Shown: positions 23,101 to 52,676, counted from the first letter of the stretch. The stretch: 64,000 nucleotides of DNA from Bacteroidota bacterium (GCA_003153435.1 PLYR01000145.1:20034-84033); one strand, 5' to 3'. The notes: a model not told the origin generated them from the sequence alone. Made by a program: numbers and translations.

Positions 23101-26100
23101 GTGCCACCCGATACCGTAACAGAAGCTGTTCCACTGGAACCACCGGTACAAAGTGCACTGGTTTGAGTTGGATTAGCGCTTAAAGCTACAGGGGCTCCGA
23201 TGGTTACATTCTGAGAGGTAACACAATTATTGGCATCGGTTATGGTACAAACATAAGTGGTATTCGCACAAAGTCCTGAAGCGGAGATTCCTGTTCCGCC
23301 TGAAGGTGACCAGGAATAGGTATACGCACCAGTACCACCGCTAGGTGCTACAGTAGCACTTCCATCGCAAGATGCACTACATTTTGCAGGAGCCTGAGAA
23401 GCAATAGATACAGAGGGTCCTCCAGCTGATGTTATGGTATAAAAGGATGTTTGAGGACAAGCATTCGCATCATGCACGGTCAATGTATATGTTCCTCCTC
23501 CAAGTCCTGTTGCAGTACTGGTTCCCTGTCCTCCTCCCGGTGCCGGTGCCCAGGTATAGGTGAAAGCACCGGTCCCGCCAGAGACAACCGCATTGGCTGT
23601 ACCGGTTGAAATTCCACATCCGGTGGTTGTGGAAGAAGGGGTGATTGAAATAACAGGTGGCTGAGTAATATTTATTACCTGAGGATGCGGGCAATTGTGT
23701 GAATCTGTTACTGTACAAGTATAGGTCCCTGCACTCAGGTTACTTGCTGTTGCAGAGTTTCCACCTGAAGGGGTCCACACATATATATACGCAGGTGTAC
23801 CTCCTGAAGGAGTAACGGTCGCGCTGGCTGTGCTGTTACCGCTACAAGATTCATTCAGCTGGGTGGCAGTGGTAGTTAAAGGCCCTGGCTGGACAATGTT
23901 AAAAGTGTGAGAGAGAGGACAACCATTTGCATCATGAATTGTGCAGGTATAGGTTGTTCCTCCAACAAGACCGTTGGCGGAATTAGTTCCTTGTCCACCA
24001 CCCGGTGCAGGAGCCCAGGTATAGGTAATAGCACCAGTACCGCCAGATGCGCTTGCAGTGGCTGTACCGTTGTTGTTTCCGTTACAGGTCACATTATTTT
24101 GAGAGGGAGCGATTGCTAAGGCACTTGGTTGTGTAATTGCAAAAGTTTGTGCAACCGGACAGTTGTTTGCGTCATGAACAGTACAGGTATAAGTAGTTGC
24201 ACCTACCAAGCCAGTAGCAGTGGCTGTGCCTTGTCCACCACCCGGAGCCGGAGCCCAGGTATAAGTATATCCTGCAGTACCACCGGAAGCAGTTGCCGTA
24301 GCGGTTCCATTATTGGAGCCATTACAATTCACATTTGCCTGGGTAGGAGTGATAGAAGGTGATGTACCGGGCTGAGTGATGGCAAAGGTTTGTGCTTTAG
24401 GGCAGCCATTCGCATCGTGAATGGTACAGGTATAGGTTGCGGGTCCGGAAAGTCCGGTCGCTGTGTTGGTTCCTTGTCCTCCTCCGGGTACAGGTGCCCA
24501 GGTGTAAGTGATTGCACCGGTACCGCCTGAAGAAGTTGCAGTGGCGGTTGCATTACTGCCCCCAAAACAACTTACGTTAGCCTGAGTAGGTACAATAGAT
24601 AAGGCGGATGGTTGTGTGATAGCAAAGGTTTGGGCCTTTGGACATCCATTTGCATCATGAATCGTACAAGTATAGGTGGTAGCTCCTGCTAATCCTGTTG
24701 CGGTGTTGGTTCCCTGACCACCACCCGGAGCGGGAGCCCAGGTATACGTTATAGCACCCGTTCCACCGGAGGCTGTTGCTGTTGCTGTTCCATTGGCAGA
24801 ACCGTTACAATTTACATTGGCTTGTGTTGGAGTAATCGATAATGCAGAGGGATTCGAAATTGTATACGTATGCGAAGCGGAGCAGCCGTTTGCTGTAGTT
24901 ACCGTACAAGTATAAGTGCCGGAGCCAAGTCCTGTTGCGGTTGCGGAGCCTTGCCCGCCTCCTCCATATCCAGCCCCAGTCCAATTATAGGTATAAGGGG
25001 CGTTTCCACCAGAAGCAGAAGCTGTAGCTGTTCCATTGCCGGAACCAACGCATGTAACATTAGAAGAGCTTGGTGTTATGGTTGCGGGTACAGCAAATGT
25101 AGCCAGCGTGCTGACGGTATAGCTACAACCATTTCCGGGAGTAACGGTAACCGTATAGGTACCACTTGCGTTGATAGTGATTACAGAGCCGGTAGTCGAT
25201 CCTACAATTCCGGGGCCGGTCCATGAAAAGGTTGTACCGGTCGGGCTTGGAGGAGCCGTAACAGTCATTGTGGAACCAATACAAGCTGCGGGCGTAGAAA
25301 CATTAAGTTGTTTAGGTCCGCAGGATCCATCGATATAAGCGTAACCGAAGTGACCACCGTGACTGCAGCCTGCAGCCGAAAAATAGATAGAGATCGTCTG
25401 ACCTGCAAACCCCGACAAGTCTAAAGTGTTTGACTGCCAGCCGGAAGAATAAACACCTGCGGCTACTGTGGAATATCCAGAAGGCGGTGATCCTGAAGTA
25501 CACTCCTGATAATATTGAAGACAAGGGATGACATGACCTGCTCCGTCGAAAACGTCCACCTCGAAATAAGGCATATCACCTAAGGGATGGCCTCCATCCT
25601 GCAGAATAACTGCATAGTTATAGGTGTAAAGGGCGTTGGTGGCATCCACAGTGAACTGTTGTTCGAGTAACTCTGCTCCGGCGTAAAAGCCTCCGCCTTG
25701 ACTAGCGGTAGTGGAGGTTTGTGCATAGGAATATGGAGGATAAATCCAGTACGGGGGCGTTGGAGAATAAGCTATATTCGGATCAATATACCCCCCACCA
25801 CACGAGCCTCCTTCAAGATTGAAATTATAGCCTCCAAGTCTGCAGGCATAGTTTCCACCACCCGGATCAACCATGGGTAAGCCTGAATAGGGGTCACTGC
25901 CTCCGCTGACAATGGTATGGGCATTACAGGATCCTACAGAGGCATTGGCTCCGCTTGGGCTGTATATTGTCCAGGAATTAACAAACATACTCAGGCCGTT
26001 CGGAATAGCACCTGCATTAAAACCATAGGCACCAGTCCAACCGGTGTAATCACCGGTTTCAAAGTCAGCATTATTACAACCAGCAAGAGGGTGTGGGTTC

Positions 26101-26450
26101 ACATGTGCAGCTCTTTGAGCTTTTACCTCAGCCTCCAGATCTTTGATGTGCTTGGCTTTATCGCGTTTAGGAGGAATGATATTATCGGGAATATGGTATT
26201 TGTCCTTCACGTAATGCGACTGAAGATGAAACATGTAATGCTTCTTCTCCGACTCCGCCATAGAGCCACGGAAGTTCATTGTATTCAATTCTGCTTGTGC
26301 CGCGGCGAAATCAAATCCGTTCAGACTATCACCTGCATAAAAATGATAGTCAACCTGATTCGAGGTAGGACCAATCGGGTTTCTTTCTTGTGCATAAGAA
26401 AAGGCGACAAGAAGGAAGAAGAAAAGTAAGGAGAGTAGTTTTTTATTCAT
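20133..26450 (-). CDS. Giant SprB-like cell-surface adhesin secreted by the T9SS. It has a signal peptide, an N-terminal domain of about 380 aa of unknown function, about 19 SprB-type repeats and PKD-like domains. It ends in a T9SS type-B CTD (gliding-motility-associated C-terminal domain).
   Basis: The start is placed at the ATG at 26450 (MNKKLLSLLFFFLLVAFSYAQ). The listed TTG at 26471 only adds 7 residues. The repeats have the form SGGTG.ITYTWAP.PGGGQGT.TATGL..GTYTCT..DANGC. The last roughly 85 residues match the type-B CTD (NIFTPNGDGINDDW...YDRWG). Confidence 0.8.
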   Translation of the reverse strand: MNKKLLSLLFFFLLVAFSYAQERNPIGPTSNQVDYHFYAGDSLNGFDFAAAQAELNTMNFRGSMAESEKKHYMFHLQSHYVKDKYHIPDNIIPPKRDKAKHIKDLEAEVKAQRAAHVNPHPLAGCNNADFETGDYTGWTGAYGFNAGAIPNGLSMFVNSWTIYSPSGANASVGSCNAHTIVSGGSDPYSGLPMVDPGGGNYACRLGGYNFNLEGGSCGGGYIDPNIAYSPTPPYWIYPPYSYAQTSTTASQGGGFYAGAELLEQQFTVDATNALYTYNYAVILQDGGHPLGDMPYFEVDVFDGAGHVIPCLQYYQECTSGSPPSGYSTVAAGVYSSGWQSNTLDLSGFAGQTISIYFSAAGCSHGGHFGYAYIDGSCGPKQLNVSTPAACIGSTMTVTAPPSPTGTTFSWTGPGIVGSTTGSVITINASGTYTVTVTPGNGCSYTVSTLATFAVPATITPSSSNVTCVGSGNGTATASASGGNAPYTYNWTGAGYGGGGQGSATATGLGSGTYTCTVTTANGCSASHTYTISNPSALSITPTQANVNCNGSANGTATATASGGTGAITYTWAPAPGGGQGTNTATGLAGATTYTCTIHDANGCPKAQTFAITQPSALSIVPTQANVSCFGGSNATATATSSGGTGAITYTWAPVPGGGQGTNTATGLSGPATYTCTIHDANGCPKAQTFAITQPGTSPSITPTQANVNCNGSNNGTATATASGGTAGYTYTWAPAPGGGQGTATATGLVGATTYTCTVHDANNCPVAQTFAITQPSALAIAPSQNNVTCNGNNNGTATASASGGTGAITYTWAPAPGGGQGTNSANGLVGGTTYTCTIHDANGCPLSHTFNIVQPGPLTTTATQLNESCSGNSTASATVTPSGGTPAYIYVWTPSGGNSATASNLSAGTYTCTVTDSHNCPHPQVINITQPPVISITPSSTTTGCGISTGTANAVVSGGTGAFTYTWAPAPGGGQGTSTATGLGGGTYTLTVHDANACPQTSFYTITSAGGPSVSIASQAPAKCSASCDGSATVAPSGGTGAYTYSWSPSGGTGISASGLCANTTYVCTITDANNCVTSQNVTIGAPVALSANPTQTSALCTGGSSGTASVTVSGGTTGYTYAWTGGVIGGGQTASTATGLAAGTYTCNITDANGCTTSASIAVTEPASALSLTPSSTNTGCGIATGTATVTASGGTGADTYTWSPAPGGGQGTPTATGLASGAYTVTVNDANNCAQSTTYNIVSAGGPSASIASQAPALCNASCDGSATVAASGGAGTYTYSWSPIGGTAATATALCANTSYTCFVTDNNNCVTSQVVTIAAPAVLSAAPSQTSVNCKGGSSGTASVAVSGGTIGYTYNWTGGVIGGGQTAVTATGLAAGTYTCNITDANGCTTSSTVSVTQPISSLSMVPASTQTGCGTSTGTASVTASGGTGADTYNWTPAPGGGQGTNSVTGLAAGSYTVTVQDANGCTLDSLISISSAGAPSVSIASNNAALCNASCNGSATVNATGGTAPFAYSWSGGGGNAATASSLCAGTYVCTVTDASNCVSTQSVIIAQPAVLSITSAQANALCNGGNTGSATATVAGGTSAYTYSWTPSGGSAQTASGLAAGTYTCNVTDANGCTTSHIYTITQPTPLAIVSSQTNASCNGSSNGSGTATVSGGTAIYTYNWTPSGGSGATASGLSAGNYTCTVTDQNGCTLPQVFTVTQPAVLAVTAAPTAATCGQADGSASATPSGGTSGYTWSWLPSGGNTANATTLTPGVYTCNVIDAHGCTASVTTTILNTGNKPVPTISTNGGNTNFCAGTNVILSAGGGGTYSWSTGSTSDSITVNTAGVYVVYVTNACGTDSTTIAMSVLPKPSPTITGQSGMCNGDSVQLTANGGGPYLWSTGSSNASIWVHSTGNYSVSATNGCGTTASANFPVTVNTVNANFIPSTLSGTPPLYVGFTDSSSATATTWSWNYGDGNTANGQNGANDLYTVPGTYTVLLTVTNASGCTSTHSVVIDVSEIKSFISAPNIFTPNGDGINDDWHVNYAGIDYFDCKIYDRWGVAMAQLIAPGVAWDGHTMAGEVCSNGTYFYVIHAKGDDGVVYDMQGFITLVRTQ
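20900..25270 (-). repeat. Intragenic tandem array of about 240-bp (about 80-aa) diverged SprB-repeat units, with roughly 17-19 copies
   Basis: The translated product shows periodic recurrence of the TYTW/AP.PGGGQGT and DANGC motifs. The region is Gly/Thr/Ala-rich and high in GC. This generates many spurious open frames on the plus strand. Confidence 0.7.
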
Positions 26451-26988
26451 CGTTGTGTTAATGATTATCAAAGGTTAAATCATAACATTGTAAAGCGTAT
26501 CCAATTCGCAATACACGAATCAAATTAATCCGGCCAAATAACAGATTGGACGATGGAATTACTCTTTTGTACGGAAGATTTCAAGAATAGATATACTTTT
26601 CTTAAAATAAACCTCAAAAACAATAATTATATTTGTAATCAGATCAATATTATAGGATTCCCTAAGCCTTATATTATTGATTAGTAGTGAGTTCTGCAGT
26701 GTGGTTCTTGGCTTTAAATTTCCGAAAAATTCCCGAAACCAGACAGGATAATTTGATAACATTCGACCAAAAGTATTTTATTGTCGACAAATATTATTAA
26801 ATATTCGACTAATATACTAAAAATAACTACTAACTAAAGTTTTTAGGCACATAAATTAGGCTTTTGACTGTATAAAATGGCCTTTCATCCAAAAAATAAT
26901 TTCGGAATTCAAGCGCAGACCTTGTAAGATTTCGGCAGGAAATTGTGATCGACAGGCAGGCCGATTTATGGGAAGAAATGCTAATTTA

Positions 26989-27372
26989 TTAAAGCTTTGA
27001 AAGACTCATTCCTTCTTTATTCTGTTGTTCAAGGCTCCATTTATCAGTGGTGGTAATACTTAACCATTCCTTTCCTGATTTGCGATAGAATCTTACGTTT
27101 AAGCCGAAAACATCTCTGAAATCCTGTTCAAGTTCTGAACTGCTCATTTCAGGAGATATGGTAACAGTACCTTTATTATGCATTATTCTTACCTCCCCAA
27201 GCTTTTGACTATTGCTGGCTACGGATTTGGGGGAGGGAGAAGCCATTGCACCCGAAGCTTTTCCCAAAAATTCAATTTTCAGATAAGGAAACAAATTATT
27301 GAATTCTTCCTGTAATGCATGAATTTTGCGATGGTCATTGATTATGATTTTCATGGAAATTAGAATTTGCAT
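26989..27372 (-). CDS. Hypothetical small protein
   Basis: It is a 127-aa ORF with no recognisable motif. It lies between the AT-rich promoter region of the giant adhesin gene and the REC-CRP regulator gene. Confidence 0.35.
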   Translation of the reverse strand: MQILISMKIIINDHRKIHALQEEFNNLFPYLKIEFLGKASGAMASPSPKSVASNSQKLGEVRIMHNKGTVTISPEMSSSELEQDFRDVFGLNVRFYRKSGKEWLSITTTDKWSLEQQNKEGMSLSKL

Positions 27373-27479
27373 TTAAAATCGAATTTTCATCTTCGATATT
27401 TATCACACAAAAATATCCTGAAATGTTGCGAAAGGAAATGACCTGTGTTGAAAAGGGGATGATTTTAATCAGGCAGGGG

Positions 27480-28541
27480 TTAATTCTTTACACATGAAAG
27501 TTTGTCGTAGTCGAGTACACTTATAAGCCGGCCTTTAATCTCGATAAGCTTTTCATCTTTCAAGTCGCTTAACATCCTGATGGCTGTTTCAGGCGCTGTT
27601 CCGGCCAGGTTTGCCAAATCTTCTCTCGAGATGCTGATACTGAAATTAGCTTCTCCATCTTTCTTGTACCTGTTGTAAAGTGTGACAAGCGCTTCCGCCA
27701 CCCGTTTACGAACGGAATTGTAGGCAAGTTTGAGGAGTTGGTCTTCTTTGTCAATTAAATCATTGGAAAGCATCTTGATAAATTTCTTTGAAACATCAGC
27801 ACTTTTATAAATCAGGGAGAAAAAATTATCTTTCGGAATCATGCAGATTTCAGAGTCTTCCAAAGTCATCGCCTCCTCTGTGTATTTGCTTTCTTCAAGC
27901 AAGGATAAGTGACCGAAAAATTCACCTTCCTTATAAAGACCATTGATGAATTCTTTCCCGAATTCATTTGTTTTAAAGGTTTTCACCTTTCCTTTAATAA
28001 CGAAATAAATTCCTTTAGGGTATCCTCCTGAGCTATATATTGATTCTTTCTTGCGGTAGTGATGAATATCCCGGTCTTCAGAAAGTTTTTTAAGGGTATC
28101 CAACCCTCCTGTTTCATTCATAAAGTCCTGAAGCCCTTCCAGACTTCTTTCGAATTTCTTCTTGAGATTATCAGCCTTTTTCAGTCTGCTGTCAATAGCA
28201 TTTAGCAGTTCCATATCGTCGAAAGGTTTGGTGATATAATCATCGGCTCCCATTTCCATTCCTTTTCTGAAATCATTCCTTTCGGTTTTGGCGGTAAGGA
28301 ATATAAAGGGGATATTGGAAGTTTCAGGGTTTTTGCCAAGCATATGCAATACGCCATAGCCATCCAGATGAGGCATCATGATATCACAAATAATTAAATC
28401 AGGCATTTCCGCAGAAACCATTTCCATACCTTCTTTTCCATTTGAAGCAGCCCTTACCTTATATCTGGCAAGTTCAAGCATTTCAGTCGTATTTTCCCGA
28501 AGTTCCGTGTTATCTTCGATTAAGAGGATTTTTTTGTGCAT
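27480..28541 (-). CDS. Fusion regulator with a CheY-like receiver domain, a cNMP-binding (CRP/FNR effector) domain and a Crp-type HTH
   Basis: The receiver motifs are LLIEDN...DLIICDIMMP...LTAK. A cNMP beta-roll with G-rich motifs follows. The C-terminal HTH is REDLANLAGTAPETAIRML. The start is placed at the ATG at 28541, 6 bp inside the listed TTG. It is a paralogue of the gene at 39439-40500. Confidence 0.75.
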   Translation of the reverse strand: MHKKILLIEDNTELRENTTEMLELARYKVRAASNGKEGMEMVSAEMPDLIICDIMMPHLDGYGVLHMLGKNPETSNIPFIFLTAKTERNDFRKGMEMGADDYITKPFDDMELLNAIDSRLKKADNLKKKFERSLEGLQDFMNETGGLDTLKKLSEDRDIHHYRKKESIYSSGGYPKGIYFVIKGKVKTFKTNEFGKEFINGLYKEGEFFGHLSLLEESKYTEEAMTLEDSEICMIPKDNFFSLIYKSADVSKKFIKMLSNDLIDKEDQLLKLAYNSVRKRVAEALVTLYNRYKKDGEANFSISISREDLANLAGTAPETAIRMLSDLKDEKLIEIKGRLISVLDYDKLSCVKN

Positions 28542-28637
28542 ATTCAAGTTGTTAATTATGATTGGCTCCTCTTTAAATTAAACAAATGTTAAGAATTCTT
28601 GCGATACCAAAATTAGGGAATGGATCCTTGGTAAACA

Positions 28638-28649
28638 TGATGAATATCA
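28638..28649. promoter_or_regulatory. Candidate CRP/FNR-type operator, the palindrome TGAT-GAAT-ATCA
   Basis: It is a perfect 4-4-4 inverted repeat in the divergent intergenic region. It lies about 80 bp upstream of the terB-like operon and about 100 bp upstream of the divergent REC-CRP gene. Confidence 0.3.
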
Positions 28650-28728
28650 GTTAATCTCTGGATATAGGTCATTCCAGGAAAACAATAGGCGAATTAGATT
28701 TGTCTTGTAATCAACTAATACCATAAAA

Positions 28729-29151
28729 ATGTCTGATATGAACCCTCTTCAAAACCTACATTACGCCCTCGGTGAATTGGCCTATTCGATAGCCCGGGCA
28801 GATGGAAAAGTACAGGAATCGGAAAAAAAACGTTTTCATAGCATTGTGGCCGCCGAACTTCGTTTGGGAAACTATGACTTCGACCTCAGCGATATCATAT
28901 TTCAGATTATGGACAAGGAGCATATTGATACGGAAACTTCCTACCATTGGGCCATGAATGAGATTCGTCTAAACAGCCATTATCTGAGCCCGGAACTAAA
29001 GCAAACATTCATCCGGGTGATGGAAAAGGTGGCCAGAGCCTACCCACCGGTTACCATTCAGGAAAAAGAATTATTGGATAAATTTAAAACGGATATTGCA
29101 ACCATTAATGGTGATCCTGTTTTTTATGAAAAACATAATAAACGCGTCTGA
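28729..29151 (+). CDS. TerB-like (tellurite-resistance / DjlA-N-like) domain protein
   Basis: It has LGELAYSIARADGKVQESEKKRF, which is typical of the TerB helical bundle. It is 140 aa and cytoplasmic. Confidence 0.45.
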   Translation: MSDMNPLQNLHYALGELAYSIARADGKVQESEKKRFHSIVAAELRLGNYDFDLSDIIFQIMDKEHIDTETSYHWAMNEIRLNSHYLSPELKQTFIRVMEKVARAYPPVTIQEKELLDKFKTDIATINGDPVFYEKHNKRV

Positions 29152-29196
29152 GGACGATTAAGAAACGGAATTAGTAAATAGTAAATAAAAATAGCG

Positions 29197-29739
29197 ATGT
29201 TAAATTATAATCCTGTTAACTTTAAGGAAATGAGCCCTTCTGAGCTTTGTGATTACATTGCTAAAAGGCACCATAAATATGTAAGGGAAGAATTTGGGAA
29301 GATCTCAGACCATCTGAAAACAGCTCTGAATGTGGATGTTAATTCAGGCCCCGAGCTGAGAGCAATCATCAAGCTCTTTCATGAATTGCATGACGAACTT
29401 GAGCAACATTTCAATAAGGAGGAGGAAATTCTTTTTCCTTTAGTTCAACAACTGATTATATCTGAGGAGACTGAGCGCGCCAAGAAGAATTTATCTGTAA
29501 GTATCATTGATAAGCCTTTGGAAGAAATGAACAAGGATCATAAAAAGATTGAACGAATTCTCTCTGAGATACGCCGGCTGAGTCATGATTATTTTCTGGA
29601 TCCGATGAGTTCGCCTACTCATAAATTGTGTTTAAATGAATTATTCGCACTGGAAGATGATCTTCACAAACAGTTTTACCTGGAAGAAAATATATTGACA
29701 CCGAAGCTGATTACCTGGGAACAAACCATATTATCATGA
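29197..29739 (+). CDS. Hemerythrin-like HHE cation-binding domain protein
   Basis: It has H/E-rich helices (HHKYVREEF, HELHDELEQHFNKEEEILFP). It is 180 aa. It overlaps the next gene by 4 bp (ATGA). Confidence 0.45.
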   Translation: MLNYNPVNFKEMSPSELCDYIAKRHHKYVREEFGKISDHLKTALNVDVNSGPELRAIIKLFHELHDELEQHFNKEEEILFPLVQQLIISEETERAKKNLSVSIIDKPLEEMNKDHKKIERILSEIRRLSHDYFLDPMSSPTHKLCLNELFALEDDLHKQFYLEENILTPKLITWEQTILS

Positions 29740-30179
29740 TAGCCACACATTCTTATATTGCCGCAGAAGCATTTACCCGGATTTCTCTGGGGATTATCTT
29801 CTTCTCTCAGGGTTATGATAAGGTTTTCAACCTTGGAATTCCCAGTGTCATTAATAATTTTGAATACCCGGTGAGATTGAAGCATCTCCCCAGGTTTCCC
29901 CTTGTTTTTGCAGCATACTTTACATCCATTGTCGAACTCATCGGAGGATTTCTGCTGATTCTCGGCTTCATGAAGTATTATGCCCTCTATTTTTTAGGAA
30001 TAGACCTCCTTATAGTGGTTGCATCGCTCTCTATGCTTGAACCCCTGTGGGATATGAAGCATGTATTTCCAAGAATGCTCCTCCTTGTTATTTTGTTGAT
30101 TATGCCTTCTTCGTGGGGAGTCGTTTCAGTTGATTACCTTTGGTCCATCATACGATTTATACGACATTTCCTATCCTAA
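29736..30179 (+). CDS. DoxX-family integral membrane protein
   Basis: It has four predicted TM helices. The DoxX-like start is RISLGIIFFSQGYDKV. It is 147 aa. Confidence 0.6.
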   Translation: MIATHSYIAAEAFTRISLGIIFFSQGYDKVFNLGIPSVINNFEYPVRLKHLPRFPLVFAAYFTSIVELIGGFLLILGFMKYYALYFLGIDLLIVVASLSMLEPLWDMKHVFPRMLLLVILLIMPSSWGVVSVDYLWSIIRFIRHFLS

Positions 30180-30190
30180 AATATAGTATC

Positions 30191-31021
30191 ATGAAGAGCC
30201 CTCAAATCCTTGTCCCTACTGATTTCTCTGACTCATCTAATAACGCTGCGGAGTATGCATGGTCCCTTGCAAAGGTGATGAAAGCTTCATTGCTCCTTTA
30301 TCACGCCTATCACATCCCAATTCCGACCACAGAAATGCCAATGATGATCGTTTCCTTAGAGCAGCTGGAAAAGGAGAATATCGATCGCCTCCATTCTTAC
30401 CGTGCACAATTGAGAAAAAAATTGGGTAACGATATTACTATAGATTGCATTGCAAGTCCCGGTTTTGCAGTCGAAGAAATTGCAGCACTGGTGAAGGACA
30501 AACAAATTGATTTTGTGATTATGGGAATATCCGGAGCAGGAAAGATTTCCCAAGCTCTCCTGGGTAGTGTTACTACCGGAGTGTTGAATGAAGTAAAGGT
30601 GCCTTTGCTGATTGTTCCGGAAGGTGCGAAGTTCCGTCCACTGACTAAGGTTGGCCTTGCTTACGACTATCAGAGTGAGATCAGTCCCAAAATTGTGGCA
30701 GAACTTAAAGCGGTTACTGCCTTGTTTAAATCCAAGCTCTTTATTATTGATGTAGAATCTCCGAAAGAAAAAGTGAATATCTCCAAGGCTGTAAGCGGAA
30801 TCAAGCTTGAGCAGGCCCTTGAAAGTATAGAACATACCCTTCATTTTCCTAAGAACAGTGATATCGTAACAGGGCTTATTGAATTTGATGAAAATCACAA
30901 AGTGGATCTCCTCATCATGATTCCAAAGAGGCATTCTCTGCTGTCGAGAATCTTCAATGCGAGCAGCACCAAACGGATGGCTTTTCATTCTCATACTCCT
31001 ATACTGGCCCTCCACGAATAA
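30191..31021 (+). CDS. Universal stress protein with tandem UspA domains
   Basis: The start is at the ATG at 30191 (MKSPQILVPTDFSDSS). There are two Usp repeats with G..G(9x)G(S/T)-like ATP motifs (VIMGISGAG). The stop overlaps the next start by 1 nt. Confidence 0.65.
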   Translation: MKSPQILVPTDFSDSSNNAAEYAWSLAKVMKASLLLYHAYHIPIPTTEMPMMIVSLEQLEKENIDRLHSYRAQLRKKLGNDITIDCIASPGFAVEEIAALVKDKQIDFVIMGISGAGKISQALLGSVTTGVLNEVKVPLLIVPEGAKFRPLTKVGLAYDYQSEISPKIVAELKAVTALFKSKLFIIDVESPKEKVNISKAVSGIKLEQALESIEHTLHFPKNSDIVTGLIEFDENHKVDLLIMIPKRHSLLSRIFNASSTKRMAFHSHTPILALHE

Positions 31022-32286
31022 TGGCGGTCATAAAAAGTAAGGAGAAAAAAGTGTGGAGTTTCACTAGGTTCTGGAAATCACTCGGTCCAGGATTAGTTAC
31101 CGGGGCCAGTGATGACGATCCTTCTGGTATCGCCACATATTCTCAGGCTGGAGCGGCTTTTGGCCTGTCTACACTTTGGACTGCTCTGATCACCTTTCCA
31201 TTGATGGCAGCTATTCAGGGTATGTGCGCCAGAATTGGTTTGGTTACTTCCAATGGCCTTACCTATACCTTAAAGAAGCACTATTCGAAACCCCTGCTGT
31301 ATGTCATGGTCCTTATTTCCCTCCCTGCTATTATCCTTAACATCGGGGCAGATATTGCAGGAATGGGTGCTGTTGCCAATCTGCTAGTTCCTTCTGTACC
31401 CGCTATTGTATTTGCTCTTTTGCTGGTATTCTTTCTGATCGTCAGCCTTATTTATTTTCCTTATCGAAAAATTGCCGCTGTTCTCAAATGGCTTTGCCTG
31501 ACTCTGCTGCTTTATGCAATCGTGCCTTTTCTGGTCAAGAACGACTGGTGGGAAGTGGCGAAAGCCTCCGTCATTCCTCAAATCCACTTTTCAAAAACAT
31601 ACCTCACCATCCTGGTTGGGATTCTTGGAACCACTATTTCTCCCTATCTCTTTTTCTGGCAGGCTTCCATGGAAAAGGAGGATCAGGAAAGTAAGAAAAG
31701 AACTATCATGGTAGGCTCCAAAGACCTTAGTGAAATGAAGGTTGATGTGAATGTCGGCATGTTTTTTTCAAACATTGTGATGTACTTTATTATCCTTACC
31801 ACTGGAAGTGTTCTTTTCAGAAACGGAGTCACCAATATCAATACTGTGCAGGAAGCGGCATCTGCCTTAAAACCTCTGGCAGGAAATTCAGCGTATCTTC
31901 TTTTTGCAATTGGAGTGATCGGAACAGGTTTTCTGGCTATTCCCGTACTGGCAGGTTCAGCATCTTATATCCTTTCAGAAACTCTGGGTTGGAAAGAAGG
32001 TCTGAATAAAAAGTGGAGTGAAGCCAAAGGCTTTTATTTAATTATAGCAGTTTCAATTATTATCGGCTTCCTGATAAACCTTCTGAACATAAATCCCATC
32101 AAAGCTCTTCTCTTCACTGCTGTTGCCTATGGTATTACCGCACCTGTGTTGATAGGTATGATCCTGCATATCTGCAACAATAAGAAGATTATGGGGGAAC
32201 ATACCAATACCCGGCTTTCCAATGTGCTGGGCTGGTTTGCCTTATTGCTGATGGCATTTGCGGCAGTGGCTTTGTTTATTATCTGA
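31021..32286 (+). CDS. NRAMP-family divalent metal (Mn2+/Fe2+) transporter
   Basis: It has GPGLVTGASDDDPSGIATYSQAGA, the NRAMP DPGN-type motif region. It has about 11 TM segments and is 421 aa. Confidence 0.75.
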   Translation: MAVIKSKEKKVWSFTRFWKSLGPGLVTGASDDDPSGIATYSQAGAAFGLSTLWTALITFPLMAAIQGMCARIGLVTSNGLTYTLKKHYSKPLLYVMVLISLPAIILNIGADIAGMGAVANLLVPSVPAIVFALLLVFFLIVSLIYFPYRKIAAVLKWLCLTLLLYAIVPFLVKNDWWEVAKASVIPQIHFSKTYLTILVGILGTTISPYLFFWQASMEKEDQESKKRTIMVGSKDLSEMKVDVNVGMFFSNIVMYFIILTTGSVLFRNGVTNINTVQEAASALKPLAGNSAYLLFAIGVIGTGFLAIPVLAGSASYILSETLGWKEGLNKKWSEAKGFYLIIAVSIIIGFLINLLNINPIKALLFTAVAYGITAPVLIGMILHICNNKKIMGEHTNTRLSNVLGWFALLLMAFAAVALFII

Positions 32287-32333
32287 AGAAGATTCAATTA
32301 TCCGCGGTTATTGACAATTGTTATTTTATGCAT

Positions 32334-33425
32334 TCATGGATTAGCCGTCTGAAATGGAATTGTAAAGTAAAGGGTACTACCAAAACCTATTCGGCTCTCC
32401 ACCCAGATCCTGCCACGAGCCTTCTCGACAATTTTCCTCACTATGGAAAGGCCCACTCCTGTACTTTCCACATCTTTCCGGTGGTGGGCCTTCACAAAGA
32501 CGTCAAATATTTTTTCAAAATAGCGTTCTTCTATCCCCATTCCGTTATCCTCTACAAAGAACATCCATTCATTCCCTTTCTTGTCCCACCCAATCTTTAT
32601 TACTCCATCCGGTTTGTCCATGAATTTTACGGCATTCCCAATCAGGTTTTCAAAAACCTCTCTAAGGTGCGTCTTATTGAAAAGCACAGTTGGAAACCGT
32701 TCGGATAAAATGAATTTGATCTTAATCCTGCTGGTATAGCGCTTTGCAATTTCATCCAGCAAATCATTTAAGTTAATCGTTTCAGCCTCCTCCTGGTTGT
32801 TCCCCACCCTGAAATACTCCAGGAGGTCAACGATAAGTGCATTCATGTAGTTGGCTTCCTTTTGTGCTAAATGAAACAGGGTTATAAATTCTTCATCCAT
32901 TTGAGCGGAATATTTTGCAAGACTCAGGTCAAGCACGCCTTTGATTCCATTCAAAGGGTTTTTGAGATCATGAGCTGCAACCCTGGTCAACATTTCCAAT
33001 TCCTTGTTGGCTCTTTCAAGATCCTCCACCAATTGCTTAAGCTGCTCCTCATACCTGATTCGTTCGGTGATATCCTTACCGGATGAGACAAAATGAGTGA
33101 TCTCCCCGGTATCATCACATACCGGAGTAATAGTCTTTTCTTCGAAATAGATCTCTCCGTTCTTTTTTTTGTTACAAACTACTGCGCGAAAGGGTTTCTT
33201 GGCTAGGATCGTCTCCCACATACCTCGGTAGTAATCTTTAGTAGCCCTGCCTGACTGAAGGAATCGTGGATTCTTCCCTAATACCTCCTCAGAAGTATAT
33301 CCTGTTATGGTCTCAAAAGCAGGATTTACGTAGGTTATAGCTCCATCTTTGGTTGTAAAAAATATATTATCGGAGGTGATCTTAATCGCAGAGTCAAACC
33401 CAATGGGGACTGTACTGATATTCAT
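32334..33425 (-). CDS. PAS-domain sensor histidine kinase (cytoplasmic)
   Basis: The PAS motifs are ITYVNPAFETITGY, EEVLGKNPRFLQS. The HisKA H-box is AAHDLKNPLNGI. The HATPase_c boxes N (LIGNAVKF) and G1/G2 (DNGMGI, GVGLSI) are present. Confidence 0.75.
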   Translation of the reverse strand: MNISTVPIGFDSAIKITSDNIFFTTKDGAITYVNPAFETITGYTSEEVLGKNPRFLQSGRATKDYYRGMWETILAKKPFRAVVCNKKKNGEIYFEEKTITPVCDDTGEITHFVSSGKDITERIRYEEQLKQLVEDLERANKELEMLTRVAAHDLKNPLNGIKGVLDLSLAKYSAQMDEEFITLFHLAQKEANYMNALIVDLLEYFRVGNNQEEAETINLNDLLDEIAKRYTSRIKIKFILSERFPTVLFNKTHLREVFENLIGNAVKFMDKPDGVIKIGWDKKGNEWMFFVEDNGMGIEERYFEKIFDVFVKAHHRKDVESTGVGLSIVRKIVEKARGRIWVESRIGFGSTLYFTIPFQTANP

Positions 33426-33466
33426 TTTCTTGTTGTTTATAAAAATGAAAAGTCAGAAACACACAC

Positions 33467-34009
33467 CTATTTTCGAACGCTTGACATCAATTTTAGCGTT
33501 GAACAAAGAACATAGATTACTACAACCATAAATATTAGGGCTGCAAACAAAAGGTATTCAGACATGCTGAACTGATTCAAAATGGAAGCGCTCTGGATTT
33601 TTGGTTCAGCCGAATTTATTGAAGCAGAGCTTACGGGTGTCTCCGTAGGGACGGGCTTAACGGCTTGTGCTGCACCTTCTACCTGAATGAAAGCCAATAC
33701 AGATTTTATCTCTGAATCCTTCAAAGGCTGGTCGGTCATTGGCATTCCATTGTTTTCATTGAATAGACGTACAGCTTCCGGATCACCTGCCTGAACCATC
33801 TTCTGGGATGATTTTATCCATTTTAATGACCAGCTCTCCGGATGCCGGTCATTCACTCCTAAAAGATCCGGACCAACCAATTTGCCTTTGCCGATGGTGT
33901 GACAAGCTCCGCAATTGGCTTTGAATAAAGTTCCTCCATCCTGTCCGGATGAAAGCTGGGCGTAATGCAGAAGGAAAATTGTTGCGATAAATGTGAGTTT
34001 GGTTTTCAT
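33467..34009 (-). CDS. Class I c-type cytochrome with a C-terminal membrane anchor
   Basis: It has a signal peptide. The haem-binding motif is CGACH, and a Met-rich distal region (NGMPM) follows. The C-terminus has a hydrophobic helix (YLLFAALIFMVVVIYVL). Confidence 0.65.
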   Translation of the reverse strand: MKTKLTFIATIFLLHYAQLSSGQDGGTLFKANCGACHTIGKGKLVGPDLLGVNDRHPESWSLKWIKSSQKMVQAGDPEAVRLFNENNGMPMTDQPLKDSEIKSVLAFIQVEGAAQAVKPVPTETPVSSASINSAEPKIQSASILNQFSMSEYLLFAALIFMVVVIYVLCSTLKLMSSVRK

Positions 34010-34153
34010 ACTTGTGTTGATTTAATATGTCTCGAAAGTATTGTGAATACGCAGGGTCGGGAATGACATTTGGCAGATCCCGGGATGATAATTATCAGTG
34101 ATTCGCATTTTAGGGTCTTAAGCCTCCCGAGGTGACATGAATCATGCTCCCAT

Positions 34154-34166
34154 TTGACGTTGATCA
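34154..34166. promoter_or_regulatory. Candidate FNR-type box TTGAC-GTTG-ATCA
   Basis: It matches TTGAT-N4-ATCAA at 8 of 10 positions. It lies in the 360-bp divergent intergenic region between the anchored cytochrome c gene and the porin-like gene. Confidence 0.25.
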
Positions 34167-34368
34167 TTAAGGTAAGACTTGGTTCGGTGCATATTTGTGC
34201 AATCTTAATTCCGAACAATACCAAAACCAAGCAAGATGAAAAAGACAAGAAAAGTTCACTTATCTGGAAGATTACCAACGGACGGCCTCCCAGGGTTGGA
34301 TATACCAAAGTATACAGTGGTTAACGGAAATAAATTGTCAATCAATTAACGAGTTAAAAGTCAAAAAA

Positions 34369-35595
34369 ATGAAAACAGGATACAAAGCACAAACGATGAT
34401 CGTCTTAGGTGGATTGCTGCTACAATCATTATGCACCATTCCCCTTCATGCACAATCAGATTCAACCGGAACGGCTCCAAGTGAAATCCCCAACAAAGCC
34501 AAAGGGGGAGGTACGAAATTTCTTTTGGCAGGAAAAGCGCAGCAGTCGTGGACAAATACCAAAGTAGATGGAAGTCCTAATTCTCATACCTTCTATCCGG
34601 ATGCATTAATGCTGATGCCTTTGGTAAAGTTGAACGATCGGCTCTTTTTAGATGCACAAATCGAGGTGGACCCCAACACTACCGGAGGGGCGGCCATCAA
34701 TCTGAACGAAATGATCGTGTATTTCCGTGCCACCAATTGCCTAAATATCTTCGCCGGAGATTTCAGTCCGAAGTACGGAATGTACATGGGTGTTTTGGAT
34801 GATTTTACAAACCGTTATGCTACTAACCCGATAGGAATGAACAGGGGGCCTGGTACTCAAACAGGAATCGGGGTTCAAGGAGGCATTCAAGCAGGGACCA
34901 CAAAGCTAAATTACCAGTTCTATCTTGCTAATGGTCCTCAGTTATTGGTTGACAGCACGACCCAGGGTAATTCTAACCCAACGGGGCAGCTTAGTTATGG
35001 AAATTACGCGGATAACAACAACAACAAAGCAATTGGAGGATCTATCGGTTTTCTTCCATTATCCAACTCCAATCTGCAGATTGATATATCTGGACAAGTA
35101 GCCGCTAAAACGGGAAATCTGGGAACGATGTATGAAAATGTAAGCAGCACCTCCTGGGCAGCGGATCTTAACTATTATCACTTGTTTAATCCTCTTATGG
35201 TCAGGGTACAAGCTGAATATAACAGCACCGTTACCCAAAATAAGACCTATCCCTGGAAGTCAACGGCAGACAGCACTAAATCACTGGTTCCTGCATTTAA
35301 CAATCAACTCAGTGGCTGGTTTGTGGGTGCCACACTTCGTCTTGCAGGTGTAAAAAGTGTCATCCTTAGCAATTTTGAATTAGGAGCACGGGTTGGTGGG
35401 TATACCCCTCCACAGTATACAGGACTTGGAACTACTCCTGCCGTGTGGGGTGAGAATCCGGAACAGCAAACCACTATATGTCTTACCTATTGGTTCACCT
35501 GGAAAACGCCGCTCAACTTTGCTTATGATGTATTGAAAACAACCGGCGGACCTACGATAACCACCTACACTGCACGATTAATTTATTTCTTCTAA
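34369..35595 (+). CDS. Outer-membrane beta-barrel (porin-like) protein
   Basis: It has a signal peptide. Amphipathic beta-strand periodicity runs throughout. The C-terminus ends ...ARLIYFF with a terminal Phe. A small cytochrome c gene follows after 20 bp. Confidence 0.45.
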   Translation: MKTGYKAQTMIVLGGLLLQSLCTIPLHAQSDSTGTAPSEIPNKAKGGGTKFLLAGKAQQSWTNTKVDGSPNSHTFYPDALMLMPLVKLNDRLFLDAQIEVDPNTTGGAAINLNEMIVYFRATNCLNIFAGDFSPKYGMYMGVLDDFTNRYATNPIGMNRGPGTQTGIGVQGGIQAGTTKLNYQFYLANGPQLLVDSTTQGNSNPTGQLSYGNYADNNNNKAIGGSIGFLPLSNSNLQIDISGQVAAKTGNLGTMYENVSSTSWAADLNYYHLFNPLMVRVQAEYNSTVTQNKTYPWKSTADSTKSLVPAFNNQLSGWFVGATLRLAGVKSVILSNFELGARVGGYTPPQYTGLGTTPAVWGENPEQQTTICLTYWFTWKTPLNFAYDVLKTTGGPTITTYTARLIYFF

Positions 35596-35615
35596 CCCTC
35601 CATAAAAACATACTT

Positions 35616-35900
35616 ATGAAAAATATCAGAGTTCCGAAAACATTCACAATTATCATGATACTTTCAATCACGATCGTCTCTTTTGTAATGATGGATGGTT
35701 GCAAAGTTCCTGAATCTATAACCAGCAAGTCTGGCGCTCAATTGTGGGGCGAGAACTGTATCCGTTGTCACAACTCACCTGATCCAAAAGGATACAGCGA
35801 CGATCAGTGGGATGCTGCTGCAGAGCATATGCGCCAAAAAGCGATTTTAACAAATCTGGAAATAACCAAAATCAGGGATTTCCTGAAGTCTGCGAATTAA
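35616..35900 (+). CDS. Small lipoprotein with a CxxCH motif (mini cytochrome c). It is a paralogue of the gene at 10451-10738.
   Basis: The lipobox is ...VMMDGC. The haem motif is W.ENCIRCHN. The motif order W-x2-C-x2-CHN...W...M..K...L..YL is shared with the 10451-10738 protein. Confidence 0.5.
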   Translation: MKNIRVPKTFTIIMILSITIVSFVMMDGCKVPESITSKSGAQLWGENCIRCHNSPDPKGYSDDQWDAAAEHMRQKAILTNLEITKIRDFLKSAN

Positions 35901-36195: not shown

Positions 36196-37596
36196 CTATT
36201 TGATAATTCTGGACTTGCTTTCAATTGTTTCCACTAAAGATGGCATTTCCTTCTTTACCTGGGCTATTCCACCTCTCACGTTAGCAACATTCGTAAATCC
36301 TTTTCCTTTTAGTATAGAGGCGGCAATCATCGACCGGTACCCTCCCGCACAATAGATAAGATATTTGGATGCGGAATTGAGTTGGGCTAGCTGCTGTGGC
36401 AATACCTCAAGCGGAATATTAAGCGAGTGCTTTATTCTATTTTCTGATGCCTCTGCGGCGGTCCTTACATCCAACGGTATGTAACCCTCATCCAAGTAGA
36501 GTTCAAGTTGATGTTCGGAGATCGTTTCAACATGGTCGAGGGTATATTGTGCTTTAATCCAACCCATCAGATTATCTTTCTGATATCCTTTAACATTATC
36601 AAATCCAATTCTTGCCAGCCGTATAACTGCATCCCGTTCTTTCTGTTCATTTACAACCAGTACAATTGGTTTGTCGGCAGGAATCAGGTTCCCTACCCAT
36701 ACGGCAAAAGCACCATCGAGTCCGATGTTCAATGATCCTTTGATGAAACCAATACCAAATTCCGTAGAGTTTCTAACATCCAGAACCACAGCCCCTTTAT
36801 TCATTTCTGCACGAAAGTCCTCCAAATTCAGAGGCATTATCGCTTTTTGAATCACAGTTTCAAGCATTTCATAACCATTTTTATTAGCATTTACATCATG
36901 AGAGAAATAAGGAGGAGGTGCAGGCAAATCTTCAATAACCTTTTTAATAAACAGTTCTCTGTTCATCGGTTGCAGTGCGTAATTTTTGTTCTTCTGCACG
37001 CCGACAGTCGACCAAGTTTCTTTCCCTAGACTTTTCCCGCATGCTGAACCAGCCCCATGACCGGGGTATATGATCACACTATCGGGCAACCCGCTTATCA
37101 ATTTGTTTAGAGAATCGTAAAGCATGGAAGCCAATGCTTCTTTTCCAAGGTTTCCGCTTCCCAGATCAGGTCGGCCGACATCCCCGACAAAAAGGGTATC
37201 TCCCGTAAATACTACGTATGGATGATCTTCCTCATTATAAGCCAGAAAACAAGATGACTCCAAGGTGTGCCCAGGAGTGTGAATCAGTTTAATTTTTATT
37301 TTTCCAAGATTAACGGTATTTCCATCCTTCGCCACCATAGCTTTGAAAGCGGGCTTAGCAGTAGGGCCAAAAATGATGACGGCACCGGTTTTTTCTGCCA
37401 GTTCCAGATGGCCGGAAACAAAGTCAGCATGAAAATGAGTTTCAAGCACGTATTGAATAGTTGCGTTTCTTTCCTTAGCCAACTTTAAGTAGACCTCCGT
37501 ATCTCGTATAGGATCAATAACAGCAGCGACCCCTTGAGATTCTATGAAATAGGAGGCTTGAGAAATGGAGGACGTATATATTTGCTTGATGTACAT
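36196..37596 (-). CDS. Persulfide dioxygenase-rhodanese fusion (ETHE1-like MBL-fold hydrolase plus two rhodanese domains, CstB/PRF type)
   Basis: The MBL motif is ETHFHADFVSG. Two rhodanese modules follow. The second carries the catalytic Cys loop (LIYCAGGYRS). Confidence 0.7.
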   Translation of the reverse strand: MYIKQIYTSSISQASYFIESQGVAAVIDPIRDTEVYLKLAKERNATIQYVLETHFHADFVSGHLELAEKTGAVIIFGPTAKPAFKAMVAKDGNTVNLGKIKIKLIHTPGHTLESSCFLAYNEEDHPYVVFTGDTLFVGDVGRPDLGSGNLGKEALASMLYDSLNKLISGLPDSVIIYPGHGAGSACGKSLGKETWSTVGVQKNKNYALQPMNRELFIKKVIEDLPAPPPYFSHDVNANKNGYEMLETVIQKAIMPLNLEDFRAEMNKGAVVLDVRNSTEFGIGFIKGSLNIGLDGAFAVWVGNLIPADKPIVLVVNEQKERDAVIRLARIGFDNVKGYQKDNLMGWIKAQYTLDHVETISEHQLELYLDEGYIPLDVRTAAEASENRIKHSLNIPLEVLPQQLAQLNSASKYLIYCAGGYRSMIAASILKGKGFTNVANVRGGIAQVKKEMPSLVETIESKSRIIK

Positions 37597-38142: not shown

Positions 38143-39414
38143 ATGCAACACGTATCACTCTTATTCCATAAATTAGCTGGTAAAATAGACCAGTATATGA
38201 TCAAGAATCTTGAAAGTAATGACATTTTCAAAATATTGTTCGATTCAGCCGGAGAAGGCTTAGTGCTTGCAGACAAGAAAGGAACGATGTTGATGGTCAA
38301 TACCAGGATGGAGGAGATGTTTGGATATGGAAAGGATGAGCTTATCGGTCAACAAGTAGAAGTTTTGATTCCCGAATCTCTTCATTCCCGGCACACTGCC
38401 CATCGGGAAAACTATAATAAACAGCCCAAAAAACGTTCAATGGGTGAAGGCATGGATCTGGTCGGCTGCCGGAAAGACAAAACGACATTACCGATAGAGA
38501 TCAGCCTTAACTATTTCTATTCCGGAGATGAAATGGTTGTGATGGGACTTGTCACCGATATTACCGAAAGAAAAAATACTCAAACACAATTGCTCCAGTT
38601 GAATACGGATCTTGAACAAAGAGTAACGGAACGGACCCAAATGCTAGCCGGTGCCATCAAGGAGTTGGAATATTCAAATAAAAGTCTGGAGAAAGCAGAA
38701 GAAGACCTGAAAAAAGCCCTGGAAGTTGAAAAAGAATTGGGTGAGCTGAAATCCCGATTTGTGTCTACCGCTTCCCATGAATTCCGGACTCCCCTCGCAA
38801 CGATTTTATCATCCGTTTCTCTGATTGCCAGATACGACAAACCAGAAGATAACGAAAAACGACAAAGGCATATTGAGCAGATTAAATTATCGGTAAGTGA
38901 ACTTCGGGAGATCTTAGATGATTTCCTCTCATTGAGTAAACTGGAGGAAGGCAAGATGAGAAATTCCCCGGATACTTTTGAGCTGACCGCTTTTTGCAAA
39001 AATATTGCTGGCGAAATGCAGATGCATGCAAAGTCAGATCAAAAAATTGAATACGTGCATGAAGGTCCAACGGAGATCCATCTCGACCATCAATTACTCA
39101 AAAATGTATTGGTCAATCTGCTTTCCAATGCCATTAAGTTCTCCGGAGAAGGATTGGAAATAACTATAACTTCGATTGTAAAAAATGGAATGCTTGAGAT
39201 TGCAGTGAAGGATAAGGGGCTCGGTATGTCAACGGAAGACCAAAAGCATTTATTTGAGCGTTTCTTCCGGGGGAAAAATGTAGCCGCGATCCAGGGAACT
39301 GGCCTGGGCCTCAATATTGTAAAAAAGTATGTGGAGTTGATGGAAGGCGAAATAAACTTTCAAAGCGAAATTAACAAAGGAACTACCTTTACAGTGTCAT
39401 TTAAATTAGCCTAA
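38143..39414 (+). CDS. PAS-domain sensor histidine kinase (cytoplasmic)
   Basis: It has a PAS domain (GTMLMVNTRMEEMFGYGKDELIGQ), a coiled-coil linker and an H-box (ASHEFRTPLATI). The HATPase_c N/G boxes are present. A REC-CRP regulator gene follows after 24 bp. Confidence 0.75.
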   Translation: MQHVSLLFHKLAGKIDQYMIKNLESNDIFKILFDSAGEGLVLADKKGTMLMVNTRMEEMFGYGKDELIGQQVEVLIPESLHSRHTAHRENYNKQPKKRSMGEGMDLVGCRKDKTTLPIEISLNYFYSGDEMVVMGLVTDITERKNTQTQLLQLNTDLEQRVTERTQMLAGAIKELEYSNKSLEKAEEDLKKALEVEKELGELKSRFVSTASHEFRTPLATILSSVSLIARYDKPEDNEKRQRHIEQIKLSVSELREILDDFLSLSKLEEGKMRNSPDTFELTAFCKNIAGEMQMHAKSDQKIEYVHEGPTEIHLDHQLLKNVLVNLLSNAIKFSGEGLEITITSIVKNGMLEIAVKDKGLGMSTEDQKHLFERFFRGKNVAAIQGTGLGLNIVKKYVELMEGEINFQSEINKGTTFTVSFKLA

Positions 39415-50978: not shown

Positions 50979-51263
50979 GTTTGGAGTTTTAATTGCGAAT
51001 GAGCAAAAGTGAGACTAACCAATCAATGAAACAATGATTGGGCTTAGTGTACCATCTGATTTTTGTCACCCGGGCCTTTTCGCGTTCTCCTTTGGAGTTA
51101 GGTAATCTGGTAAATGTCATTTTCAGATCTGATTTTGATCATCAATTTTGAGCTATAAATCCTGTTGATTTGCCTTATAAATGAATTCCGAAAGACGAAA
51201 GCAACAAAATCATCAATGTCCGAAGTTGTTTTTCCAAAGTATAGAGTTACATAATCAGGTTAA

Positions 51264-52676
<1,413 letters not shown>

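Follow-up and report, generated by a model that had tools for sequence, protein, structure and literature searches.

A two-way tandem-box promoter ahead of a Bacteroidota stress operon suggests a low-oxygen regulon run by a FixL-like kinase and a receiver-Crp fusion protein

What reads the perfect inverted repeat that stands ahead of a five-gene stress operon in a Bacteroidota bacterium, and which signal would it pass on? The locus occupies positions 28638 to 32286 of a 64,000-nucleotide stretch of DNA (GCA_003153435.1 PLYR01000145.1:20034-84033; the whole stretch is called the window below). An earlier note had described here a co-regulated operon resembling hypoxia or nitric oxide (NO) stress regulons, placed behind a single CRP/FNR-type palindrome. 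Our analysis indicates that the operon is ordinary stress hardware, and that the interest lies in the regulatory system that it exposes. Comparison with related loci suggests that the operon probably belongs to a conserved Bacteroidota low-oxygen regulon, which it would join through a two-way tandem-box promoter run by a FixL-like kinase and a receiver-Crp fusion protein. The genes and promoter elements concerned are these.

27480-28541, minus strand: REC-CRP1, with receiver (REC), cNMP-binding-like and HTH_Crp domains (Pfam); candidate binder of the palindrome
28608-28615, minus strand: -7 box TAATTTTG of the divergent REC-CRP gene; arrangement repeated in loci L081 and L087
28638-28649: box 1, TGATGAATATCA, a perfect TGAT-N4-ATCA inverted repeat (sequence scan)
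28660-28671: box 2, GGATATAGGTCA (reverse complement TGACCTATATCC), degenerate, matching the family-wide second box TGAy-N4-vTCAT
28695-28702, plus strand: operon -7 box TAGATTTG (TAnnTTTG), starting 57 nt after the start of box 1
28729-29151, plus strand: TerB-like protein, first gene of the operon (PF05099, E 1.6e-6)
29197-29739, plus strand: protein with a hemerythrin (di-iron) domain of RIC/YtfE type (PF01814, E 9e-15), 45 nt after the TerB gene
29736-30179, plus strand: DoxX membrane protein (PF07681, E 1.1e-10), with a 4-nt ATGA overlap with the hemerythrin gene
30191-31021, plus strand: tandem-domain universal stress protein, Usp (PF00582 in two stretches, E 4.6e-28), 11 nt after doxX
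31021-32286, plus strand: NRAMP-family transporter of the NRMT (Mg2+-type) clade, with a 1-nt TAATG overlap with usp

In outline the earlier description stands. The palindrome lies about 80 bp upstream of the operon, in a region shared with the divergent REC-CRP gene; the five plus-strand genes and both of their overlaps are as it gave them, and Pfam supports all of its domain calls. It had taken one palindrome for the operator, and this part needs amendment: the box is real, but box 2 and the flanking -7 boxes had been overlooked, and the operator is better read as two boxes predicted to act in both directions.

The centre of box 1 falls 85.5 nt 5' of the TerB start codon (ATG at 28729) and the two boxes are 22 bp apart, centre to centre, so that the layout reads box(12)-N10-box(12)-N23-TAnnTTTG. 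The sigma-A box TAnnTTTG spans -12 to -5 in those promoters of Flavobacterium psychrophilum that have been mapped (PMC9723704), a position that would here set the transcription start of the operon at ~28707, about 22 nt before the ATG, and centre the boxes at -41.5 (class II-type, overlapping the -33 region) and -63.5, with the distal box two helical turns upstream of the proximal one. For the plus-strand promoter the box at about -41.5 would be box 2 and that at about -63.5 box 1. Towards the minus-strand REC-CRP gene, with a predicted start at ~28603, the same two boxes swap roles before the second -7 box (box 1 at about -40.5, box 2 at about -62.5), which points to a bidirectional, autoregulated promoter. 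For the plus-strand promoter a matrix built solely from other genomes gives 36.2, compared with at most 14.3 in shuffled windows. A scan of 26800-34400 for E. coli-type promoters and terminators gave counts not above those of shuffles; such a scan is uninformative for a Bacteroidota host, the origin to which the T9SS sorting domains encoded in the window and the TAnnTTTG boxes both point.

A functionless 4+4 inverted repeat can be expected now and then in AT-rich intergenic DNA, and box 1 specifies just eight bases, a pattern expected about 2.5 times per window; one further copy, inside usp (30886), does seem to be such a chance occurrence. The count and placement of the copies argue against a similar origin for box 1. 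TGAT-N4-ATCA occurs eight times in the window against 2.55 +/- 1.70 expected, a number that 0 of 100 dinucleotide shuffles reach, and five of the eight copies are intergenic. At four of these five (27460, 28638, 34086 and 43432) a -7 box begins 56-57 nt past the box start, as an exact TAnnTTTG at three of them and as TACTTTCG at 34086, and each of the four has a weaker second box 22 bp downstream. The fifth copy (51130) is followed by a TGnnTTTG box, TGATTTGC, 35 nt past the box start (position weight matrix scan).

The same geometry recurs in a comparison set of 80 loci, 1.11 Mb in total and exclusively from Bacteroidota, each of which surrounds a relative of the REC-Crp regulator; they were drawn from the matches to it among GTDB species-representative genomes, at least 572 stretches in all. 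These loci hold 136 perfect boxes where about 33 are expected, and TAnnTTTG starts exactly +57 from the box start in 37 cases and +35 in 14, every other offset being seen once or twice. Allowing no more than 3 mismatches in 16 positions, we count 84 two-box promoters, spread over 50 of the 80 loci; five shuffles gave none. In a logo of 73 + 51 promoters nothing but the box pair and the -7 box carries information, and the consensus reads cTGATaAaaATCAT - N8 - TGAy-N4-vTCATt - N21 - TAnnTTTG. The spacers are unconserved, and the promoters are thus not copies of a repeated element.

At the operon itself, box 1 is identical in L081 and carries one mismatch in L087, with the same geometry in both. 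The bidirectional layout is kept in L081 (~90% protein identity) and in the more distant L087, where the divergent unit is the kinase-regulator operon. Enrichment in the window and in related loci, the fixed distance to the -7 box, the partner box 22 bp away, the arrangement kept in L081 and L087 and a promoter score far above the null maximum effectively refute the chance reading of the palindrome, to which we attach only a very slight probability. Very probably the palindrome is a genuine operator and forms, with its weaker partner, a tandem pair of boxes for an activator of the Crp/Fnr family.

The genes that follow such promoters give the first indication of the signal. Among the related loci the most frequent is hyp127, encoding a 127-aa protein of unknown function (17 times), followed by the PAS kinase of the system (16), the tandem Usp (15), CcoS/FixS and a 139-aa coiled-coil protein of unknown function (14 each), CcoN, subunit I/II of the cbb3 oxidase (13), DoxX (11), Hsp20 (8), a Cu-type (CcoI-like) P-type ATPase (6), and TerB-like proteins and AI-2E transporters (2 each). 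Five of nine other loci with TerB orthologues have tandem boxes upstream of the gene; in three of the remaining four the gene is internal to a Usp-hyp127-TerB operon, and in L003 it has no boxes. The alphaproteobacterial FNR/FixK core regulon comprises the cbb3 oxidase, a P-type ATPase, UspA, HemN and the regulator itself (PMC2908626). F. psychrophilum responds to oxygen limitation with strong induction of the cbb3 oxidase and HemN and with induction of a monohaem cytochrome c, in a study whose text and searched supplements name no regulator for this response (PMC9723704). Judged by these likenesses, the genes behind the two-box promoters would form an FNR/FixK-like microaerobic regulon conserved in Bacteroidota, with low oxygen as its presumed signal. 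The central claim of the note, a co-regulated hypoxia/NO-like stress operon behind a CRP/FNR operator, is thereby borne out in the main, the box belonging to a two-box promoter class found also at cbb3, ccoS and Hsp20 genes in related genomes and at hemN in the window; the joint transcription of the five genes is taken up below.

The candidate regulators and their kinase lie in the same window, beside a third protein of the Crp family.

38143-39414, plus strand: histidine kinase with a FixL-like haem-PAS domain (Pfam)
39439-40500, plus strand: REC-CRP2, following the kinase gene in the canonical operon form (Pfam)
56067-56831, minus strand: one-component FNR-like protein, with N-terminal CxxCx8C and a central Cys (Fnr model 94.9 bits)

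The receiver of REC-CRP1 matches PF00072 over the full domain length (E 1.9e-29) and shows an acidic pocket, the Asp that would accept the phosphate and the conserved Thr and Lys (motifs IEDN, ICDIMMP, LTAKT and TKPF). The recognition helix of the protein reads PETAIR, which follows the pattern of FNR (E..SR) and not that of CRP (RE...R); the CRP residues E72, R82 and S83, which serve cyclic AMP binding, and R180 of the recognition helix are replaced by H, T, E and P. In both REC-CRP1 and REC-CRP2 the receiver stands in place of the N-terminal Cys cluster of a [4Fe-4S] FNR. No NCBIfam model reaches its cut-off for the REC-Crp architecture, and the literature searched, which left most subscription papers uncovered, holds no description of a receiver-Crp regulator or a FixL-type system in Bacteroidota.

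Where enough upstream sequence is at hand, the REC-Crp gene directly follows a PAS histidine kinase gene in 75 of 76 loci. The PAS domain of the kinase matches FixL haem-domain structures (E 1e-17) with the proximal His aligned, and both this His and the Arg that comes after it reach at least 90% conservation across 67 kinases, from which haem binding is predicted. A Met at the distal position of the haem, as in EcDOS, was considered as a ligand and rejected, the column being unconserved in 66 orthologues.

We are now able to propose a mechanism. The boxes would most likely be bound by the adjacent REC-CRP1 or by its paralogue at 39439-40500, in each of which a receiver is fused to an FNR/FixK-like module, and the regulator would probably be phosphorylated by the kinase with the FixL-haem-like PAS domain. 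The operon and, with it, a wider regulon would then be induced by low oxygen, or by some other haem ligand or redox state; that regulon comprises cbb3 oxidase and maturation genes, HemN, c-type cytochromes, Hsp20, Usp, DoxX, TerB-like proteins and hyp127. The FixL-FixJ-FixK cascade would in this way be collapsed into one two-component step.

Several observations weigh against this proposal. The 80 loci were picked by regulator similarity, and the excess of boxes in them is an enrichment without a genome-wide background density. The outer T/A of the FNR-type site TTGAT-N4-ATCAA is unconserved: 124 promoters show a 5' flank of c/a and a 3' flank of T, and box 1 itself is flanked by A...G. REC-CRP1 has no adjacent kinase gene, either here or in L081. 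The FixL residue Arg220 (R220 of BjFixL) aligns to Met in the window kinase, in a column that is unconserved, and ligand selectivity may therefore differ from that of FixL. The RIC gene and the nosD/F/Y genes beside the L087 cluster would fit NO or denitrification as the context. Finally, the three Crp-family proteins of the window share a nearly identical recognition helix.

This last point bears on which of the three binds. The assignment of the boxes to the REC-CRP proteins is drawn from gene neighbourhood, since the boxes cluster around REC-CRP genes and precede the REC-CRP's own kinase operon; neighbourhood suggests a binder and is not proof of one. The boxes might instead be bound mainly by the one-component FNR-like protein, possibly by way of an Fe-S cluster, in which case the REC-CRP genes would merely be members of its regulon. 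Its helix reads TETAIRTLSDL, compared with PETAIRMLSDL in both REC-CRPs, its CxxCx8C motif, central Cys and 94.9 bits to Fnr are those of a plausible FNR, the hemN gene immediately downstream of it has a two-box promoter, and the box specificities of FNR, FixK and Dnr are well known to overlap (PMC2908626). Set against this, a true orthologue is found in just one of the 80 box-rich loci around REC-CRP genes, boxes precede the kinase-REC-CRP operon 16 times, and the 69 bp ahead of the FNR-like gene itself yielded no box. Each of these three observations is compatible with binding in trans, and we regard binding mainly by the FNR-like protein as rather unlikely but worth keeping in view, with a REC-CRP protein as the preferred binder.

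The signal can be questioned in a similar way. The architecture may be as described and yet respond to NO, redox or nitrosative stress rather than to low oxygen. The operon encodes a di-iron protein of RIC/YtfE type, and the Arg220 that is unconserved in these kinases is a residue that aids oxygen discrimination in FixL; the L087 surroundings noted above point the same way. The commonest targets of known function are nevertheless the cbb3 oxidase, its maturation genes and HemN, which are hallmarks of low oxygen (PMC2908626), and a Flavobacterium induces them when oxygen is limiting (PMC9723704). We therefore consider a signal other than low oxygen unlikely, and low oxygen would remain the presumed input.

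The direction of control also deserves scrutiny, given the overlap of box 1 with the -33 region of the promoter for the REC-CRP gene. The boxes might mainly be repressor operators, serving for example negative autoregulation of REC-CRP while the operon is roadblocked. Model organisms offer a parallel, in that their FixK2 and FNR repress their own genes. Negative auto-repression of fixK2 is also mentioned in one study (PMC9104804). In about 80 promoters, on the other hand, the box predicted at -41.5 replaces the -33 element, with no conserved TTG, which is the classic layout of a class II activator, and the targets are induced rather than repressed at low oxygen in a Flavobacterium (PMC9723704). 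Repression as the main role thus appears improbable, and activation from a tandem-box promoter is the mode that we favour.

How far is the operon itself part of this system? The unit that is conserved is TerB-RIC-DoxX-Usp, and the NRAMP gene appears to be a late, lineage-specific addition. In L081 the four genes are followed by a 278-bp gap and other genes, with no NRAMP in the operon; in L087 an NRAMP gene lies nearby as a separate unit without boxes. NRAMP homologues elsewhere stand in unrelated gene contexts outside the closest lineage, and NRAMP is accordingly not a hallmark of the regulon. The five-gene set of the earlier note therefore holds for its first four members. The five-gene order did not recur in the other genomes compared, and distant genomes reshuffle the regulon genes, as in L017 (TerB-Usp-cytochrome c-porin-like-cytochrome c). 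Scanning metagenomes with the short RIC as query gave a single close relative, L081, besides four remote ones, a set that serves synteny and is too small for statistics. At L087 6360-11335 the TerB-RIC-DoxX-Usp operon adjoins a full-length RIC gene (ScdA_N and hemerythrin domains) and nosD/F/Y-type genes, a neighbourhood that would link the system to nitrous oxide (N2O) or NO metabolism in some genomes.

From the close spacing of the five genes, and with no terminator found between them in the E. coli-type scan mentioned above, we infer that they are co-transcribed; the spacing likewise suggests translational coupling. The most likely usp start is the ATG at 30191, the mechanically called open reading frame opening at a TTG at 30140. 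The hemerythrin protein had been put forward as an O2/NO-sensing di-iron fold. A domain of RIC/YtfE type is indeed present, but the protein scores 113.8 bits against TIGR03652 (E 9e-33; cut-off 204.7), its match to model positions 61-215 of 216 covers the C-terminal two thirds of the model, and no ScdA_N domain was found in it in the NCBIfam comparison. Full-length RIC genes of L055, L058 and L087 are only ~31% identical to this short RIC.

The NRAMP protein had been taken for a Mn/Fe importer, a label that we cannot uphold. Its best structure match is the NRAMP-related Mg transporter EleNRMT (7qia, E 6e-53, compared with ~1e-19 for MntH), and it scores 127 bits against the MntH model, whose cut-off is 430. 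The metal-site motifs are DPSG in helix 1 and TTISPY in helix 6, in place of the canonical DPGN and A..MPH; the Met and His of the Mn/Fe site are missing, and a function as Mn/Fe importer is thereby unsupported. A perfect TGATGAAAATCA inside usp (30886-30897, plus strand), 130 nt before the NRAMP start, was examined as a promoter for this gene and rejected, having no -7 box at the proper distance and being lost in L081 by a synonymous-type change; its absence from so close a relative marks it as a coding coincidence.

The matrix scan places further promoters of the two-box class in the window, none of them above the null maximum within its first 27 kb. Together with the genes that they precede they are as follows.

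26989-27372, minus strand: hyp127, uncharacterised, 127 aa; own promoter with box TGATTTTAATCA at 27460-27471 and a -7 box at 27408-27415, 56-nt spacing
34086: promoter of a cytochrome c gene (33467-34009)
34133, plus strand: promoter of a porin-like gene and a small cytochrome c gene
40587, plus strand: promoter of an 88-aa lipoprotein with a YHS (copper-type) domain, ~40696-40962; score 39.6, the best of the window
43432: promoter of an AI-2E/CoA-transferase pair, 56-nt spacing
44277: promoter of a gene for a 223-aa membrane protein
48265: promoter of a gene for a 117-aa protein of unknown function, 56-nt spacing
51057: promoter of a gene for a type IX secretion system (T9SS) protein
51108-52676, plus strand: tyrosine phenol-lyase (TIGR02618, 767 bits, above cut-off), with an apparent two-box promoter, score 27.2
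52723: promoter of a cytochrome c gene
55281: two-box promoter of hemN (TIGR00538, 453 bits, above cut-off)

The hyp127 protein has no Pfam or NCBIfam match; orthologues occur in about 45 of the 80 loci, usually beside Usp and DoxX. The 139-aa predicted coiled-coil protein, found for example on the minus strand of L056, has no Pfam match, and no copy was noticed in the window. The gene for the YHS lipoprotein sits directly after the second REC-CRP gene. At 34133-35900 (plus strand) a 408-aa porin-like protein without a family match is followed by a 94-aa cytochrome c with a weak SorB-like match; the pair recurs in L017 and L050, and a nearby fusion of metallo-beta-lactamase fold and rhodanese (36196-37596) hints at sulfur chemistry. 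The genes for the FNR-like regulator (CxxCx8C), a thioredoxin-like protein and HemN follow in series at 53861-56831 on the minus strand. The hemN -7 box ends about 6 nt before the annotated ATG, which suggests either a leaderless mRNA or a misplaced start codon. Tyrosine phenol-lyase is an unexpected presence in a low-oxygen regulon.

A further PAS histidine kinase gene (32334-33425, minus strand) converges on the NRAMP gene; the product has a LOV-like motif, GKNPRFLQSG, in which Pro replaces the photoactive Cys. It lies 41 nt 3' of the cytochrome c gene 33467-34009, with its two-box promoter at 34086, and may consequently be co-transcribed with it and belong to the regulon. Unrelated to the operon is a 2112-aa protein (20133-26471, minus strand) made up of many repeats of ~75-80 aa rich in Gly, Thr and Cys, which ends in a C-terminal region of gliding/T9SS type and resembles adhesins of the SprB kind.

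What would the system mean if the proposal is right? For this window, it predicts two transcription starts and two operator boxes. It would also link hyp127, the 139-aa coiled-coil protein, the TerB-like protein and the short RIC to oxygen limitation, a connection not apparent before, and would illustrate how a three-protein cascade (FixL, FixJ, FixK) can compress into two proteins. As a wider and tentative suggestion, which we hold as possible though on the doubtful side, the receiver-Crp fusion, partnered by the FixL-like haem kinase, could govern microaerobic respiration and hypoxic stress throughout the Bacteroidota as a master regulator not yet named, with phosphorylation-driven contacts between receivers linking one Crp-type dimer at -41.5 to another at -63.5, on boxes 22 bp apart. 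Such joining of dimers is a mode not described for Crp/Fnr proteins; it would give a switch-like response and allow a symmetric two-box module to fire two divergent promoters at once. In soil, water and animal hosts, members of the Bacteroidota count among the major aerobes and microaerobes, and the kinase, the regulator, the operator sequence and the promoter geometry together make a testable candidate for their low-oxygen control.

Finally, the system may be set beside those that it resembles. Two comparisons concern single proteins of the operon. The short RIC shares the hemerythrin-type domain of RIC/YtfE/ScdA/DnrN proteins and differs in lacking the N-terminal ScdA_N domain and in falling below the TIGR03652 cut-off. 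The transporter agrees with EleNRMT of Eggerthella lenta (7qia) in the change of Asn to Gly in helix 1, a Thr in helix 6 and the loss of the soft-metal Met; it differs in reading TTISPY rather than TTIAPW in helix 6 and DPSG rather than DAGG in helix 1, and a Mg2+ substrate is suggested by analogy only. At the level of the promoter, class II and tandem CRP/FNR promoters of E. coli place one dimer at -41.5, overlapping the -35/-33 region, and a second about two turns upstream on the same face. Here, by contrast, the tandem arrangement is the rule, and two divergent promoters would use the box pair symmetrically.

In Mycobacterium tuberculosis, the haem-sensor kinases DosS and DosT and the response regulator DosR (DevR) run a hypoxia/NO stimulon rich in Usp and alpha-crystallin/Hsp20 proteins. 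The present system shares the pairing of a haem-sensor-type kinase with a response regulator, as well as the Usp and Hsp20 content. It departs from DosR in that DosS and DosT rely on GAF domains for sensing and the output of DosR is of NarL/LuxR type with another box, whereas here the sensor is a PAS domain, the output is of Crp type and the regulon centres on cbb3 oxidase.

The closest likeness is with FixL-FixJ-FixK of rhizobia and Caulobacter and with FNR/FnrL. The PAS domain is homologous to the FixL haem domain and keeps its proximal His, the output belongs to the Crp/Fnr family with an E..R recognition helix, the core TGAT-N4-ATCA equals the inner 12 bases of TTGAT-N4-ATCAA (the outer T/A differ), and one box is predicted at about -41.5. 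The content is shared as well: the targets include ccoN, ccoS/fixS, a CcoI-like P-type ATPase, hemN, usp and the gene of the regulator, a set that matches the alphaproteobacterial core regulon (PMC2908626). Differences are equally clear. A separate FixJ, with its receiver and LuxR-type HTH, is missing. Instead the Crp-like module carries the receiver as a direct fusion, which would place two regulatory tiers in one protein. Arg220 is unconserved, the boxes stand in a fixed tandem 22 bp apart, the -7 box is the Bacteroidota sigma-A form TAnnTTTG, and the host is one of the Bacteroidota. Overall, the system appears to work like the microaerobic control exerted by FixLJ-FixK and FNR, yet it is not a member of that class as defined.

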